From: Methanobacterium sp.
Lineage (GTDB): Archaea > Methanobacteriota > Methanobacteria > Methanobacteriales > Methanobacteriaceae
Length of the DNA stretch: 32,000 bases
Assembly (NCBI GenBank): GCA_019084405.1
Contig: JAHRFX010000006.1
Coordinates: 19,213-51,212, forward strand
Direction of reading: 5' to 3'
Shown piece after piece: positions 3,994 to 31,415 of this stretch. The notes beneath the pieces are model-generated. The model ran no database searches. It was not told where the DNA came from and saw nothing but the letters and a program-made list of their open reading frames with translations. A program made the translations under genes and the position numbers. Numbering within the stretch: position 1 is the first letter of the stretch; each line of letters opens with the position of its first letter.

Positions 3994-4689
3994 ATGGCAA
4001 ATATCAGGAACCAGCCGGAATATCAACTGGAAATAGATAACCAGTATCTATTAATTGATGATAAAAAATTTAATCTTCTAAAAAAAATAGATAGCTGTGG
4101 CTCCATAAGGGGAGCCTCGCAACAGGCCCAGGTACCCTACCGCACTGCCTTGAAGTACATAGAAATTATGGAAAAAGTGGTGGGTTCTCCGGTGGTTCTC
4201 ACCCAGAGGGGAGGTAAAGGTGGAGGTGGTGCTAGCCAGCTTGCCCCCACCGGAAAGTTAATTATTAAAGAATATCAGAAACTGAATGAAATTCTGCAAA
4301 AACACAGCCACATGAATGAAATTGAAGGCCAGGTCATTAGCCGGGATAAAGAAAATCAGGTGATGGTTATTCAGGTGGGGGATCATGAAGTCATACTACC
4401 TATATCCGATGACCTGGAGCTAGGGGATCAGGCCCTGATTTTATTAAGCCCGGAAGATATTTTTATCATGCTCCAGCTGCAGGAGTCCAGTGTACGTAAC
4501 CTGCTCCCGGGAAAGATAGTGGGTATGGAACTTAAAAATAAGATGGTCCGGATTAAATTAGATTTAGGGAATAATATACCAGTTTTAGTGGATATTACTC
4601 GTTATTCCTGGGAAAAACTTAATCTGGATTTAGGTAGTCAGGTTTTTGCTGGTTTTAAGGCCACTTCCCCCAGTGTTATGAAAATCTGA
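3994..4689 (+). CDS. ModE-like regulator: N-terminal wHTH plus C-terminal TOBE (molybdate/tungstate-binding) domain
   Basis: The N-terminal segment FNLLKKIDSCGSIRGASQQAQVPYRTALKYIEIMEKVVGSPVVLTQRGGKGGGGASQLAPTGK matches the ModE-N pattern, including the RGG.GGGGA.LT..G loop. The C-terminus SVRNLLPGKIVGMELKNKMVRIKLDLG...VLVDITRYSWEKLNL..GSQVFAGFKATS is TOBE-like. Confidence 0.7.
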   Translation: MANIRNQPEYQLEIDNQYLLIDDKKFNLLKKIDSCGSIRGASQQAQVPYRTALKYIEIMEKVVGSPVVLTQRGGKGGGGASQLAPTGKLIIKEYQKLNEILQKHSHMNEIEGQVISRDKENQVMVIQVGDHEVILPISDDLELGDQALILLSPEDIFIMLQLQESSVRNLLPGKIVGMELKNKMVRIKLDLGNNIPVLVDITRYSWEKLNLDLGSQVFAGFKATSPSVMKI

Positions 4690-4718
4690 TTAATTATAAC
4701 TTATAAGTTATAACTTAT
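4690..4718. repeat. TTATAA[C/G] heptad array forming nested perfect palindromes (20 bp at 4694-4713, 16 bp at 4703-4718)
   Basis: The direct read is TTAATTATAAC TTATAAG TTATAAC TTAT. TTATAACTTATAAGTTATAA equals its own reverse complement. Positions 4696-4718 are identical to 21978-22000. Confidence 0.9.
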
Positions 4719-4734
4719 CACAAAAAGAGGTAGT

Positions 4735-4965
4735 ATTATCATACAGATTAAAGTAGACGGAAAAAAATGCACCGGTTGTGGAATATGCGTAACAGAGTGT
4801 CCCAAGGGAGGAAAAATTTGGAGTGTGGACCGTAGATCCAAAAAAGCACAGGCCTGTAATTTAGAATTCTGTCATGGGTGTACCATATGTGCTGCCAAGT
4901 GCCCGGTAGAGGCCATAGAAATCATAAGAGATGGTAAAGATGAGAAAAAAAAAGATGAGTCGTAA
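4735..4965 (+). CDS. Small 2x[4Fe-4S] ferredoxin, not in the ORF track, with no canonical start codon
   Basis: The frame is open from 4714 to TAA at 4963-4965. It encodes ..IQIKVDGKKCTGCGICVTECPKGGKIWSVDRRSKKAQACNLEFCHGCTICAAKCPVEAIEIIRDGKDEKKKDES, which has two CxxCxxCxxxCP motifs. SD-like AGAGGT sits at 4726-4731. The only in-frame candidates after it are ATT 4735, ATC 4738 and ATA 4741, so the exact start is uncertain. Confidence 0.6.
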   Translation: MIIQIKVDGKKCTGCGICVTECPKGGKIWSVDRRSKKAQACNLEFCHGCTICAAKCPVEAIEIIRDGKDEKKKDES

Positions 4966-19618: not shown

Positions 19619-20734
19619 ATGAATACCATGCGCAAGATGCAGGTCCTTAGTGATTCTGCCCAGTATGACCTCTGCGATTATGTGAATCACCACACCAGTT
19701 CTTCAGCTAATCTACCAGGAATATACCACAGCACCGTCGGTTCAGGATGTAAAATACCTCTTTTTAAGGTTTTAATGACCAACAAATGCTGTAATGATTG
19801 TAAGTACTGTATCAATAACAGTAAAAGAAATTTCACCCGCATAGAGTTAACTCCCCGTGAGTTAACCCGGGTTTTTCTCAATTACTATCAAAAAAAATAC
19901 GTGGATGGTTTGTTTTTAAGTTCCGGGATTTCAGGAGATATAGATTCTTCCATGGAAAAGATGGTGGAGGTAGCCCGAATACTCCGCCGGGAACATGGAT
20001 ACCAGGACTACATCCACCTTAAGATCATTCCCGGAACCTCCCGGGACATAATTAAAAGGGCCATGGGCCTGGCTGATAGGGTGAGTGTTAATATTGAAGC
20101 AGCCACACCTTCCGGTCTATCTGAGATTAGCTCCACCAAGGATTATCATAAGGACATCCTCCGGCGCTTGAAGTGGATACGGTCTATACATAAAAAAAAT
20201 CTGGAGTGCGCCCCCTCTGGTCAGACCACCCAGCTTATTGTAGGGGCCAATGATGAAAGTGATGCAGATATTCTAAAAAGGGTGAAATGGCTTTATGATA
20301 AGATGGATGTAAGGAGAAGTTATTTCAGTACATTCCAACCCTTAGAAGAAACCCCTCTGGAAAATAGACCAGGTGGTAATCCAATCCGTTCTTCAAGGCT
20401 TTATCAGGCGGATGCACTCCTGAATTCCTATAAATTTAAGGTGGATGAATTAATTTTCCAGGAAGATGGACTCCTGGATTCTACTTTAGACCCTAAATAT
20501 AATGCGGCCATAAATATGGATATTTTTCCGGTGGAAGTTAACCAGGGGCCTTATCAGGATTTAATCCGGGTCCCAGGAATAGGCCCCTTATCTGCCCGGA
20601 GAATAATCTCCATTAGAAAAAAATATCCCTTTAAAAAATTAGAAGAATTAAAAAGAATCGGAGTGGTGGTGCACCGTGCAGAGCCCTTTATCAAACTGGA
20701 AGGAAATTACCAGTCCTCTCTGGATAGTTTCTAA
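19619..20734 (+). CDS. Radical SAM protein with C-terminal helix-hairpin-helix (putative DNA modification/repair radical SAM family)
   Basis: The N-terminus is LSDSAQYDLC and the radical SAM motif is FKVLMTNKCCNDCKYC (Cx3Cx2C). The C-terminal HhH is LIRVPGIGPLSARRIISIR. The pattern matches my recollection of the TIGR03916-type family. Confidence 0.78.
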   Translation: MNTMRKMQVLSDSAQYDLCDYVNHHTSSSANLPGIYHSTVGSGCKIPLFKVLMTNKCCNDCKYCINNSKRNFTRIELTPRELTRVFLNYYQKKYVDGLFLSSGISGDIDSSMEKMVEVARILRREHGYQDYIHLKIIPGTSRDIIKRAMGLADRVSVNIEAATPSGLSEISSTKDYHKDILRRLKWIRSIHKKNLECAPSGQTTQLIVGANDESDADILKRVKWLYDKMDVRRSYFSTFQPLEETPLENRPGGNPIRSSRLYQADALLNSYKFKVDELIFQEDGLLDSTLDPKYNAAINMDIFPVEVNQGPYQDLIRVPGIGPLSARRIISIRKKYPFKKLEELKRIGVVVHRAEPFIKLEGNYQSSLDSF

Positions 20735-20774
20735 GGGTTTGAATAGTTTTTAGAGTCTGAATAGTTTCTAAAGG
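20721..20774. repeat. Three imperfect ~17-bp direct repeats (period 18-19 bp) between the convergent radical-SAM and mini-ParB genes
   Basis: TGGATAGTTTCTAAGGG (20721-20737), TGAATAGTTTTTAGAGT (20740-20756), TGAATAGTTTCTAAAGG (20758-20774). Copies 1 and 3 match at 15/17; copies 2 and 3 at 14/17. Copy 1 covers the stop codon at 20732-20734. Confidence 0.85.
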
Positions 20775-20782
20775 TAAATAAT

Positions 20783-21136
20783 TTATATCTCTGAGAACAT
20801 CTCCCAGATTTCCGGGTACTTCTCCTGGACTGCGTCTTCTATTAGCCTGGAGGCTTCTTTACTGATACTAAATTCTGGACGAGTTTTTTTAAGGTAACGT
20901 AGAACTGCTGCTGATCGGGCGGACCATAAAGTTATCCGTGGATTTTTTTTAACTTCCATGGTCACCACATTCAGGTTTGAATCATCATCAGGACCCTGAG
21001 ATACTTTTTTATCCTTTTTTTCAGGTTTTTCCTGAGGGGATAGTGCTTCACTTTCTGGTTTGTCCCTGGTTTTGGATTTAATTAAGGCCTCCAGCCCCAT
21101 TCCCAACCCGGCATTTTTAGTTTTTTTCCGGGACAT
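20783..21136 (-). CDS. 117-aa ParA partner: ParB N-terminal box plus a charged linker plus a small C-terminal (RHH-like?) domain; SegB-like candidate
   Basis: Its ATG overlaps the parA stop (TAATG), and a GGAGGAGG SD sits inside the parA 3' end. The N-terminus is MSRKKTKNAGLGMGLEALIKSK, matching the ParB/Spo0J box GLGrGLdALl. Residues ~25-60 are K/E/P/D-rich. The C-terminus PRITLWSARSAAVLRYLKKTRPEFSISKEASRLIEDAVQEKY fits a strand-helix-helix pattern. Confidence 0.55.
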   Translation of the reverse strand: MSRKKTKNAGLGMGLEALIKSKTRDKPESEALSPQEKPEKKDKKVSQGPDDDSNLNVVTMEVKKNPRITLWSARSAAVLRYLKKTRPEFSISKEASRLIEDAVQEKYPEIWEMFSEI

Positions 21137-21909
21137 TATTCCTCCTCCCGTTTAAGAAGTTCCTGGGCCAGTTTCATATAAGAAATGGTACCACTACTCT
21201 CCTGGTCATAAAGTATGCAGGGTTTTCCATAACTGGGGGCCTCAGCTAAACGTACATTACGAGGTATGGTGGTTTTAAATATGTACTCCCTCTCACCAAA
21301 GAAGTTTTTAACCTCCTGGTGAACATCCCGACCCAACCGGGTCCGGGAATCATAAAGTGTCATTAAAATACCTTTAATAGGAGATGGACTCTGCAAACGC
21401 TCTTCAATAAGATTCATGGTTTTAATTAAATCAGCCATTCCCTCCAAGGAATAGTACTCCGCCTGTATTGGTATAATAACACTATCAGAGGCCACCAGAG
21501 CATTCAAGGTTAGAATGCCCAGGGAGGGAGGTACATCAATCAGTATGTAGTCAAAAAGATCCTTCACCTCTTTTAAGGTCTCTTCTAAAATGGAATGATA
21601 GCCTATTTCTCTACTCAGTTCCACTTCCGCCCCAGAAAGGGCGATATTACTGGGTAAGATATAGAGACCCTCCACCATGGTGGGGAGTATGGCCTCCGGG
21701 GTGGTGTCTTTACGGCTGAGAACCGTGTATATAGTTTTTTCCAGGTCCGCTTTTTGAATACCAAAACCGGTGGTGGCATTGCCCTGAGGGTCCATGTCAA
21801 TTAGCAGTACCTTTTTATCTAACAGGGCCAGTGCAGTGGATAGATTCACCGCGGTGGTAGTTTTACCACAGCCCCCCTTTTGATTTATTATTGAAATTAT
21901 TTCTCCCAT
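21136..21909 (-). CDS. parA: ParA/Soj-family partition ATPase
   Basis: Has the deviant Walker A IINQKGGCGKTTTAVNL, then LLIDMDPQGNAT, the Walker B-like region YILIDVPPSLG, and the C-terminal IPRNVRLAEAPSYGKP. 257 aa, similar to Soj along its whole length. Confidence 0.9.
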   Translation of the reverse strand: MGEIISIINQKGGCGKTTTAVNLSTALALLDKKVLLIDMDPQGNATTGFGIQKADLEKTIYTVLSRKDTTPEAILPTMVEGLYILPSNIALSGAEVELSREIGYHSILEETLKEVKDLFDYILIDVPPSLGILTLNALVASDSVIIPIQAEYYSLEGMADLIKTMNLIEERLQSPSPIKGILMTLYDSRTRLGRDVHQEVKNFFGEREYIFKTTIPRNVRLAEAPSYGKPCILYDQESSGTISYMKLAQELLKREEE

Positions 21910-21950
21910 CTAAAAATACCTCCCCTGTAATCAATTTATAGAATATATTT

Positions 21951-22004
21951 TTAATTATAAGTTATAAGTTTTTTCTAATAACTTATAAGTTATAACTTAT
22001 AAGA
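21951..22004. repeat. Seven in-phase heptads (TTATAAG/TTATAAC type) upstream of parA, with 16-bp and 22-bp perfect palindromes
   Basis: Heptads start at 21955, 21962, 21969, 21976, 21983, 21990 and 21997. They read TTATAAG, TTATAAG, TTTTTTC, TAATAAC, TTATAAG, TTATAAC, TTATAAG. ATAACTTATAAGTTAT (21978-21993) and CTTATAAGTTATAACTTATAAG (21982-22003) each equal their own reverse complement. Confidence 0.9.
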
Positions 22005-22070
22005 AGAATAATAGTAGATTAAGGTGACAAAATAAATAAAAAAAAGAGAATTTAATTCTTTAAAAAAGAA

Positions 22071-23903
22071 TCAAAATGCTATCCGTTGAGATATTAAAAG
22101 AGGAAGAGGTAGAGCCCGGAAAGGCATATTTTTAGTTTCCTCACGAACCATGACCACCAGACCATCCAGATCTGTGGTCTTTTTTTCCTGAGTTTCACGA
22201 ATATTTATGGTGAGTTTACCACTTTCCACTTCATTATCACCAATAACCGCCACATAGGGAACCCATTCCTGGGCAGCATTCCGGATTTTTTTACCAACCC
22301 GTTCCCCCCGATCATCCACATCCACCCGTATATTCTGATCTTTTAATTTGCGGGCCACATCCAGAGCAAAGTCCAGATGATTTTCAGTTACGGGTAACAC
22401 CCTTATCTGGGTGGGTGAAAGCCATACCGGAAGCATAGGGGCCTTTTCATTCATTTCAATAGCCGTCTTCTCCAGTAAACTACAAATTACCCGTTCAATA
22501 CTCCCGGTAGGACTACAGTGAATAATTATAGGGAATCCTTCCTCTTCGTTTTCTTCCAGATAGGTGATACCGAATCTCTCCCCACTTTCCACATCAATTT
22601 GTATGGTGGGATTTTCAATAGGTCTTCCCAGATAGTCCATAGCAGCAAAGTCCATTTTAGAAATCCAGTAATGTTTTCTCTCAGGTAATATCTCCATTAA
22701 GACCGGTTTACCAATCTTACGGGCAGCCTGATGCATCCAATCCTGGTACTTATCATAGAAATCCGTGGTAGCCCGGAATATCACTTCATAATTTACCTGT
22801 AAATCCACCCCGGTCTGCAGACACATATCAATCTGCCGGTCAAATTCCTCCAGAGATTGTTCCAGATCCCGGCATACTGTATGCAGATCCGGCATGGTGA
22901 ATCCTCTTAGTCTTTTTAATCCAACCACTTCACCTTTTTTCTCCATCCGGAAGCTGTAAGTGGATAGTTCATAAATTCTGGCCGGAAGGTTTTTCCAGGT
23001 CAAAAACGAATCCGATAAAACCCGGAAAGCACCGAAGCAGCAGGCATATCGTAACATTAACTCCTTCTTGTTATTTCCCATACGGTACTGCCGCTCCCCA
23101 AATTTCTCAGCATGCACCCGAATGGCGTCATCAGCCAGGTCATACATAATAGGGGTCTCGACCGGCATGGCTCCTTCTTCTGTAACCAGGAGATATACAT
23201 AGTCCGAGAGTAAATCCCGAATTAATCTACCCTTGGGATACCATCGGAGGTGTCCCACATCAGCTGAAGGTTCATAATCCGCCAAATTTTTCTCCCGCAT
23301 GAGTTTTACATGAGGTGGTTCTTTTCCACTGGACTCGGTCTTTCCCAGTTCATACATGGTTAGTTTGCGCAGTTCCTCATTTTCAAATTTGAAGTCCTCC
23401 GGGGGAGTGAGTTTACCTTCATCCAGGATGTACCATTGGGATTCTTCTTTTTCTTCTTCCTCTTTTTGTGAGGAAACCTTCTGGGTGGTGATGGTCCGGG
23501 ATAATTCAGAAAGGGGATGGCCCTTACAGGATACTTCAAAAGATTTGTACCATCCAAAGGGTGCCCGGGCAACATTGTATCCGTTATTTTTTAATTCTTT
23601 TTCCATTTCCATTAATACTGATTTAGCAGTGTCTGGAGAGCTCAAAGAAGAACTTAAATGAGCATAGGGATATATTACTATGTTTTCAGCTTTTATTTTA
23701 CTAAAAACATCTTCTATTTCTTTTACCACATTTTGCACAATTTCCTGTGGTTTTTCCTCGTCTTCTGCTTCTACCGCAGTGAAAACCACCAGGGAATCGG
23801 TGAAGTATCCTTCCTTTTGATCTTCTCTAAGTTCCTCAGCAATTCGGGTTTTGTTTTTAGTTTGATACTTTAAATAATCAGAATGAATTAACAGTACACG
23901 CAT
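22071..23903 (-). CDS. thrS: Threonyl-tRNA synthetase, archaeal type with N-terminal editing domain
   Basis: The N-terminus [22 protein letters not shown] is the archaeal ThrRS editing-domain start. Class II core motifs and a C-terminal anticodon-binding domain follow. SD GGTGA followed by TTGC precedes the ATG. Confidence 0.92.
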
Positions 23904-29759: not shown

Positions 29760-31415
29760 ATGAGAAGTGATAATATTAAAAAAGGACTCCAAAGGGCCCC
29801 TCACCGATCCTTGTTAAGGGCCTGTGGTGTGGTTGATGAGGACATGGAAAAACCATTTATTGGAATAGCCAATAGTTTTACCGACATTGTCCCGGGGCAC
29901 ATCCACCTTAGAGAACTGGCTGAAGCAGTTAAAGGAGGTATAGACCAGGCCGGAGGTGTTGCATTTGAATTCAACACCATGGCCATCTGTGATGGTATTG
30001 CCATGAACCATGCCGGGATGCGTTTTTCACTGCCCTCCCGGGAAATAATTGCCGATACCGTGGAAAGTATGGCCCAGGCCCATAGCCTGGATGGTCTGGT
30101 ACTCTTACCTACCTGTGATAAAGTGGTGCCCGGGATGTTAATGGCTGCTGCCCGACTTGACATTCCCTGTATAGTGGTTACCGGAGGCCCCATGCTTCCT
30201 GGTAAATTCAAAGGAAAGTCAGTGGATCTCATCAATGTTTACGAGGGAGTGGGTGCGGTAACAGCAGGTAAGATGAGTCAGGAAGAATTGGATGAACTGG
30301 AACGTTGTGCCTGTCCTGGAGCCGGATCATGTGCTGGTTTATTTACCGCCAACACCATGGCCTGTCTAACTGAAGGTCTGGGAATGAGTCTGCCTGATTG
30401 TGCCACCACACACGCAGTGGATGCGCAAAAAATGAGGATAGCCCGATCTTCCGGGGCCCGGATTGTGGAAATGATTGCTGAAGACCTCACACCCTCAAAA
30501 ATAATGAATCAAACTGCTTTTGAAAATGCAGTGGCCCTGGACATGGCCTTAGGTGGTTCCAGTAACACTGCACTACATATACCTGCCATAGCCAGTGAAC
30601 TGGAGGATAAGGGAGTCAAAGTGGATCTATCCCTTTTTGATAAGATGAGTAAAAAAATACCCCACCTCACCCCTATTAGTCCTGCCGGTGAGCATATGAT
30701 TATCGACCTGCACCAGGCCGGAGGAATACCCGCTGTTTTAAAAGTGCTGGAAAGTAAACTGGACCTGGAAACCATCACCTGTACAGGTAAAACCCTCCAG
30801 GAAAATATTAAAACCGCAGAAGTTAGAGACGAAAGTGTTATAAGACCTTTAGATAATCCTTTCCATAGAGAAGGAGGTATTGCAGTTTTAAAAGGTAACC
30901 TGGCACCAGATGGATCTGTGGTAAAACAAGGTGCGGTTTCAGAAGATATGATGACCCATAGTGGACCTGCCCGAGTATTTGAATCAGAAGAAGATTGCGT
31001 GGAAGCCATATTCCAGGGAAAAATCAAAGAAGGCGACGTTATTGTTATCCGGTATGAAGGTCCCCGGGGTGGTCCTGGAATGAGAGAGATGTTGAATCCT
31101 ACTTCAGCCATATCTGGAATGGGGATTCAGTCCGTGGCCCTTATTACCGATGGCCGGTTTTCAGGAGGTACCAGGGGGCCGTGTATCGGGCATGTTTCTC
31201 CCGAGGCCATGGCCGATGGACCCCTGGCTGCAGTTAGAGAGGGAGACATGATACATATAGATATCCCTGCCAGACTGTTAGAAATAGAACTATCACCCCA
31301 AGAGATTGAAGATAGGATTGCATCCTCCCAAAAACCTCACCGGGAATTAAAGGGTTGGTTAGCACGATACCAGAAACTGGCCACCTCAGCTGACAAGGGA
31401 GCTATTTTAAGGTAA
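29760..31415 (+). CDS. ilvD: Dihydroxy-acid dehydratase
   Basis: Resembles IlvD along its whole length ([56 protein letters not shown]...GHVSPEA). Confidence 0.95.

Follow-up and report, generated by a model that had tools for sequence, protein, structure and literature searches.

SegB of S. solfataricus recognises imperfect palindromes that immediately precede segA, and its ChIP-seq consensus, TCTAGA-S-TCTAGA, marks 46 sites, most of them intragenic and the best ones near segAB; for Sulfolobus SegB sites the intragenic share is ~83% (PMC12284271). The corresponding element of S. acidocaldarius, segS, is a set of three 7-bp repeats (AGNGTNN) directly in front of segA (PMC12139799). The crystal structure of SegB with DNA shows each ribbon-helix-helix (RHH) dimer on one half-site; residues K52, W56 and K75 of the Sulfolobus protein contact bases, P72 makes the dimer-dimer contacts that are needed for spreading, and euryarchaea are reported to have Arg in place of K52 (PMC8682754). 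A ChIP study published in 2025 detected nothing convincing close to segAB in a euryarchaeon, and suggests that the sequence recognised there is quite different (PMC12284271).

The stretch of DNA that we analysed (the window) comprises 32,000 nucleotides of the draft genome of a Methanobacterium (G000:C3:19213-51212; 2.17 Mb, 36% G+C), and coordinates are window positions unless a contig or another genome is named. On the minus strand the window encodes a ParA/Soj-type Walker ATPase of 257 aa (21136-21909; Pfam AAA_31 5e-64, CbiA 2.9e-24), with one orthologue in 39 of 41 relatives, and the stop of this gene overlaps the start of a 117-aa gene on the same strand (20783-21136), base 21136 being common to both. 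In the 117-aa protein a disordered linker joins an N-terminal GLGxGLxALI peptide to a C-terminal domain of the ribbon-helix-helix type (KNPRITLWS...). The protein matches S. solfataricus SegB (PDB 7DUV) with E=4.8e-8 when searched by itself and 1.2e-13 when a profile built from 28 homologues is used, and its relatives in the PDB are SegB only; a Pfam search returned no family, and neither a ParB/Srx CTPase nor an HTH domain. The KNPRITLWS stretch also fits the C-terminal signature of SegB, K/R-D/N-P-K/R-I-G/T-V/L-W-S (PMC12139799). Because the gene that follows parA encodes a SegB homologue, the operon is segAB, and we call its first gene segA. R67, W71, S90 and P87, the equivalents of K52, W56, K75 and P72 in Sulfolobus, are invariant in the 28 homologues, and the strand NPR(I/V)(T/S)LWS is unvarying across the lineages compared. 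An AlphaFold2 model of the SegB monomer (pLDDT 67 overall, 70-91 in the C-terminal domain) has helices where they are expected and no strand, and a Foldseek search of the PDB with this model gave no match with E<1. The RHH strand, which needs a dimer, is thus not reproduced by the monomer model and the fold search is uninformative, so that membership of the SegB family rests on the sequence-profile match.

We found 939 SegB homologues, and those with a named source come from methanogen genomes, almost all of them Methanobacteriales. Many database entries for the Methanobacteriales protein are mis-named 'AAA family ATPase', and others are unnamed. SegB is present in 119 of the 121 Methanobacteria genomes searched. 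Apparent absence of segAB from G069 and G072 reflects assembly gaps: the former also lacks the essential thrS and has its radical-SAM neighbour cut at a contig end, and in the latter segA is cut at the contig start. [quoted passage not shown] The existence and role of the ParA-binding peptide of ParB have been described (PMC12462528). A ParB-like peptide on SegB would fit the Soj-like character of SegA, and a PDB search with the 31-residue N-terminus of SegB gave no match. The likeness to bacterial ParABS lies in this peptide, in the close relationship of SegA to Soj-type ATPases, and in candidate sites that are few and origin-proximal (in this genome and in G003, G033 and G037). The differences are that there is no ParB/Srx CTPase or HTH domain here and no 16-bp parS, and that the putative DNA reader is a protein of the RHH type.

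Between the thrS stop (22071) and the segA start (21909) there is a 161-bp spacer, both genes being on the minus strand, with archaeal-type thrS (22071-23903) facing the segA start with its stop. This spacer holds an array of TTATAA(C/G) heptads at 21955-22003, to which we assign no strand and which we call site A. An initial annotation of this DNA had described seven consecutive heptads that stay in register here, and they do: the array reads TTATAAG TTATAAG TTTTTTC TAATAAC TTATAAG TTATAAC TTATAAG, and Tandem Repeats Finder returned 7.0 copies with a period of 7 and no indels. It can be divided into a promoter-proximal pair (21955-21968), two degenerate heptads (21969-21982) and a distal triplet (21983-22003), and it lies 46-94 nt upstream of the segA ATG. 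The T-rich spacer past the thrS stop, between the array and thrS (22004-22070, minus strand), is probably the terminator region of thrS, to judge from the sequence.

The initial annotation had also pointed out two nested palindromes, and perfect palindromes of 16 bp (21978-21993, ATAACTTATAAGTTAT) and 22 bp (21982-22003, CTTATAAGTTATAACTTATAAG) are indeed present in site A. The order of C and G at heptad position 7, however, differs among the three arrays of this genome (described below) and among species. We therefore regard the long palindromes as incidental by-products and reject them as cruciform or dyad sites, and the idea that the alternating orientation is itself functional is not borne out. 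The conserved feature of the arrays is the 7-bp phase of TTATAA plus S.

Site A resembles the segS sites of Sulfolobales in several respects. In both cases the sites lie directly upstream of segA, a 6-bp palindrome and a G/C recur every 7 bp, the reader (a putative one here) is a SegB of the RHH type in which the tryptophan and the loop proline are conserved, and further copies occur elsewhere on the chromosome, with the best near segAB. However, the half-site here is TTATAA as opposed to TCTAGA, which amounts to transitions at hexamer positions 2 and 5, and the arrays are longer, with 4-8 heptads or more. There are three sites here compared with 32-46 motif sites in Sulfolobus; the methanogen arrays examined lie outside long ORFs, whereas most Sulfolobus sites are intragenic; and in several genera the methanogen arrays cluster on one side of oriC. 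The base-contacting residues K52 and K75 of Sulfolobus SegB are replaced by R and S in the protein that would bind here, and a conserved SegB reader with changed base-contacting residues fits a changed half-site. The Sulfolobus consensus (TCTAGASTCTAGA, core AGA-S-TCT) has no match in this genome at one mismatch or fewer, and 12 matches at two mismatches, none of which is on contig C3 or C52.

A second precedent comes from bacteria, where omega, an RHH protein of plasmid pSM19035, acts as repressor and centromere-binding protein on contiguous 7-bp WATCACW heptads (cited in PMC8682754). Its heptads follow one another in direct and inverted orientation, one RHH dimer binds to each, and the array doubles as an operator and as the centromere of a ParA-type ATPase, much as is proposed here. 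In contrast to the present case, the omega system belongs to a bacterial plasmid, its heptad sequence is unrelated, there is no detectable sequence homology between omega and the SegB described here, and its few sites are carried by the plasmid, not by a chromosome close to the origin.

We propose, with a probability of roughly 80%, that the array is a segS-type SegB binding array of a Methanobacteriales SegAB partition system, serving as segAB operator and as origin-proximal centromere. The initial annotation had put forward a centromere or autoregulatory site of a par or segAB operon, and this gains support from the SegB homologue, from the order-wide occurrence of the array and from its Sulfolobus-like build.

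To determine how unusual the array is, we scanned the whole 2.17-Mb genome with a tolerant definition, in which a good heptad has at least 6 of 7 matches and up to two poor heptads can be bridged. Four or more good heptads in phase occur in only three arrays: site A (6 of 7 heptads good), site C (6 of 7) and site B (4 of 4). Loci with at least two adjacent in-phase TTATAAS heptads also number only three genome-wide. Third-order Markov simulations of the genome (n=3) gave 1-4 arrays of three heptads, once an array of four, and none larger; the array at site A is far beyond chance. The doubled form TTATAA-S-TTATAA occurs at 10 positions in the genome, 8 of them on contigs C3 and C52, whereas the same palindrome-S-palindrome construction for each of the other 63 six-bp palindromes occurs at most twice, so that TTATAA alone is in excess. 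AATATT, AAATTT and TTTAAA are commoner than TTATAA as single hexamers, yet show no excess of the doubled form.

Site B (4694-4721, no strand assigned; TTATAAC TTATAAG TTATAAC TTATCAC) is 17.2 kb from site A, and its positions 4696-4718 are identical to 21978-22000 of site A. Its neighbours are a TOBE-domain gene (3994-4689) on one side and a small ferredoxin/hisB unit on the other, and it has a syntenic counterpart in G003, a complete genome of the same genus. The ORF for a 2x[4Fe-4S] ferredoxin that follows it (4714-4935; Pfam Fer4, 2.9e-11) has no in-frame ATG, GTG or TTG; there is a Shine-Dalgarno sequence, AGAGGT, at 4726-4731, and the only start candidates are ATT 4735, ATC 4738 and ATA 4741. 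The G003 orthologue of this ferredoxin is 88% identical. Site C is on another contig (C52:9883-9931; TTATAAG TTATAAG TTGTAAG AGATAAG TTATAAC TTATAAC TTATAAC) and occupies the ilvE-uppP spacer, where it is followed by a canonical TATA box (AAAAATTTATATGC); it is syntenic in G003 and in the Methanothermobacter-type genome G033, and has thus been kept across families.

The setting of these sites bears on whether the arrays could be operators of a different regulator, such as a TrmB-family, TOBE/ModE-like or other small RHH protein, with a small regulon that includes segAB. Several features would suit such a regulator. Each of the three arrays is intergenic and precedes a gene read in the same direction, and a good TATA box adjoins site C. 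The TOBE-domain gene stops 5 nt short of site B, and there is a TrmB-type gene at a distance of 2 kb from site A. However, the genes downstream (segAB at site A, the small ferredoxin and hisB at site B, uppP at site C) have no common function, segAB is the only association seen in nearly every genome compared, and the one G033 array tested in this respect (L036) has no TOBE, ferredoxin or hisB match. The build of the motif, moreover, equals that of the experimentally defined SegB motif (PMC12284271). Regulation by another protein is also at odds with an array in G037 that has 3' gene ends on both sides, those of a GAF-domain gene and an AcnX gene in convergent orientation, and we consider it improbable.

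The same G037 array is informative about promoters, since no promoter is expected between convergent gene ends and the array there is therefore not a promoter element. TTATAA is TATA-like, resembling the archaeal TATA element, and TBP/TFB may occupy the heptads. At segAB itself a core promoter can be predicted from the sequence at 21926-21968 on the minus strand (TATA/BRE-like TTATAATTAAAAATATATT), overlapping or abutting the two proximal heptads, and the Shine-Dalgarno sequence of segA (GGGGAGGT) reads at 21925-21918 on the same strand. The proximal heptads, which are TTATAAC TTATAAT on the coding strand, are AT-rich and stand where the TATA/BRE of a leadered segAB mRNA is expected, at TATA-box distance from the Shine-Dalgarno sequence and the ATG, and the arrays of relatives end 20-48 nt from the segA ATG. 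These observations favour the proposal that the heptads are reiterated TATA-like boxes, making up a strong or multi-start promoter for TBP/TFB with no dedicated partition role. The initial annotation had named TBP occupancy as a competing explanation, which scattering of the motif over hundreds of promoters would have favoured; with only three arrays in 2.17 Mb, the element cannot belong to promoters in general. It had also noted that a single TATA box or BRE does not need a 7-bp period with alternating orientation. TBP needs neither a strict 7-bp phase over 50-130 bp nor the conserved G/C at position 7, and site C has its separate canonical TATA box past the array. A generic TATA-box element is rejected on rarity and on the convergent-end array of G037, and we judge it very unlikely that the arrays as a whole are promoter elements of this kind.

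We then considered the segA loci of 30 relatives, the closest of them in the same genus and the most distant in a different family of the class, where SegA identity is down to 65%. At least three good in-phase heptads are present within 260 nt upstream of segA in 27 of the 30, across the order, and a typical relative has 7-8 heptads of which one or two in mid-array are degenerate. As a motif-free measure of this periodicity, we calculated base autocorrelation over the 150 nt upstream of segA in 19 representatives, obtaining 0.43-0.44 at lags 7, 14 and 21 compared with 0.32-0.34 at other lags. A control of 565 AT-rich upstream regions of this genome gave 0.32-0.33 at lags 6-8, 13-15 and 21, with no lag-7 peak, and 13 of the 19 representatives exceeded the 99th percentile of the control. 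The unbiased heptad consensus in most lineages is TTATAA followed by c, g or a. The exact 14-mer TTATAASTTATAAS, a double heptad, has 367 matches in 40 Methanobacteria, from a few to a few tens per relative, against 41 for the reversed control, and none in an outgroup without segAB.

The pattern has exceptions. G056 and G014 have segAB and degenerate arrays only, with the exact double heptad absent, and in G010 the double-heptad motif is at the control level. G039 has no array upstream of segA, its six arrays lying 30-93 kb from segAB. G008 (complete, 1.68 Mb) is the sole genome with a broken segB and with no segA that we could find; its segB reading frame is frameshifted behind a long low-complexity N-terminus: a 211-aa ORF ends ...KKNPRITLWSPRSAAVLRYLRKTSPNLVLV, and the remainder, SEFSISKEAS..., is in another frame. 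One 8-heptad array persists directly upstream of this segB remnant (L051, C1:24200-25400), which we count in favour of a SegB site, and the exact double heptad occurs nowhere else in the genome; G008 may represent a decaying SegAB system or a sequencing error.

Such conservation has to be set against the possibility that the arrays are simple-sequence repeats under no selection, or the remains of a mobile element. They are short AT-rich tandem repeats in AT-rich spacers, as neutral repeats would be, and five arrays of G039 lie inside a repeated module of ~90 bp. However, position, phase and sequence are kept from Methanobacteriaceae to Methanothermobacter, where SegA identity is ~65-77%, the site C array is syntenic across families, and the three sites of this genome showed neither transposase genes nor repeats on their flanks. 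Neutrality is in our estimation highly improbable, the least probable of the explanations considered.

The downstream side of the operon provides some further observations. In some genera segAB is bracketed by arrays, one before segA and one just past segB (G015 L022, C56:75709-75761; G019:C295:5973-5993); the one just downstream of segB in G015 is a true TTATAAS array, whereas the present genome has the upstream array only. Here the convergent spacer from the radical-SAM/HhH gene to segB is filled by three direct repeats of ~17 bp at 20721-20774 (GAATAGTTTCTAAGGGT-like, period 18-19). A 9-mer from these repeats was not found in the same-genus loci L002-L004, and they may be terminator-region sequence.

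In order to place the arrays relative to the origin of replication, we located oriC by clusters of the ORB-like 13-mer TTACACTTGAAAT adjoining orc1/cdc6. The probable oriC of this genome is at C52:31225-32160, where eight such 13-mers (at one mismatch or fewer) lie beside orc1/cdc6, and C52 carries 9 of the 14 matches genome-wide; the Cdc6_C match is at C52:29871-30128 on the minus strand. Three minus-strand boxes at 31229-31378 and four plus-strand boxes at 31873-32148 face each other across a spacer of ~500 bp. We reject the arrays themselves as origin-recognition boxes, as the ORB element is a different sequence and is clustered at oriC. Site C is 21.3 kb from oriC. Alignment to G003 shows C52 abutting the end of C3, and on this basis sites A and B are ~46 and ~64 kb away. 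By synteny, then, the three arrays lie within ~64 kb on one side of oriC, with one in the segA promoter, in answer to the initial annotation's call for a genome-wide search for enrichment near the par locus or the origin.

ORB clusters also mark oriC in G003, G033, G037 and G028. The G003 arrays are 22, 45 (the segA promoter) and 62 kb from oriC and hold all nine exact matches in that genome, and the G033 arrays are at 18, 41 and 60 kb. In G037 (1,751,377 bp) the arrays lie 9, 40, 59 and 84 kb from oriC (at 1,286,882, about 1,318,000, 1,337,241 and 1,362,086), the 40-kb one being upstream of segA and not an exact 14-mer match. However, not every genome shows origin proximity. The segAB genes of G028 lie ~306 kb away from the ORB cluster, though one array is 5 kb from that cluster, and in G005 and G057 the arrays are spread across hundreds of kb. 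G039 (1,243,342 bp) also departs from the pattern, and no ORB cluster was found adjoining its cdc6 gene (position 2,743).

The G039 arrays are unusual in another way. At C1:1,073,572-1,098,068 (L038-L042), five of its six four-heptad arrays (GTTATAAGTTATAACTTATAAGTTATAAG) are 20-30 bp from an exact ORB box (TTACACTTGAAATTTAC). Array and ORB box together form the repeated ~90-bp module, three copies in one orientation and two in the other, which hints at a possible link between Orc1/Cdc6 sites and candidate SegB sites.

Taking the preferred reading of a SegB binding array, the following mechanism can be envisaged. Each heptad would offer one TTATAA half-site and accept one SegB RHH dimer. Dimers on successive heptads, 7 bp apart, would touch via the conserved loop proline P87 (P72 in Sulfolobus SegB), and the contacting dimers would build a short nucleoprotein filament, from which the disordered N-terminal GLGxGLxALI peptides could engage the nucleoid-bound Soj-like SegA ATPase.

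Two roles would follow. In the operator role, SegB on the two promoter-proximal heptads, on or next to the segAB TATA/BRE, would repress its own operon. We infer autoregulation because SegB bound there would compete with TBP/TFB, and we consider it fairly probable that site A is also the segAB operator. In the centromere role, site A would act together with 4694-4721 and C52:9883-9931 as a small set of sites ~21, 46 and 64 kb from oriC, in a parS-like layout. That sites A, B and C make up an origin-proximal centromere is a reading that we favour by a little over even odds.

A wider generalisation, which we offer tentatively and think doubtful as it stands, is that several Methanobacteriales genera possess a compact parS-like centromere of 3-6 SegB-bound arrays at conserved distances on one side of oriC (~20, 41-46 and 60 kb, in two families), which would organise the origin domain in rod-shaped, low-ploidy archaea, with the arrays fused to ORB boxes in G039. 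If this were true, the fusion of array and ORB box in G039 would point to a direct coupling of replication-initiator binding and the segregation machinery.

A literature search found no paper that describes the site or gives the motif string in an archaeal context; the 2012 PNAS paper on SegAB, which may mention euryarchaeal sites, was outside the coverage of the search. Systems of this type have been described before. Compared with the literature searched, the new features are a different half-site, long arrays in phase, a low number of extragenic sites and the closeness of these sites to oriC.

Apart from SegAB, no system dedicated to chromosome partition is known in archaea, and Sulfolobales are the only group for which the cis sites of SegAB have been defined. 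The TTATAA-S heptad array is a concrete candidate for the SegB site of a whole order of methanogens, including M. thermautotrophicus, which is genetically tractable. The candidate arrays predict a handful of ChIP peaks near oriC, and the changed half-site (TCTAGA to TTATAA), paired with changed residues (K52R, K75S), may amount to a recognition code, which can be tested. Most Methanobacteria are rods. The presence of SegB in 119 of 121 genomes of this group is relevant to a recent proposal that links SegB with spherical cells (PMC12139799).
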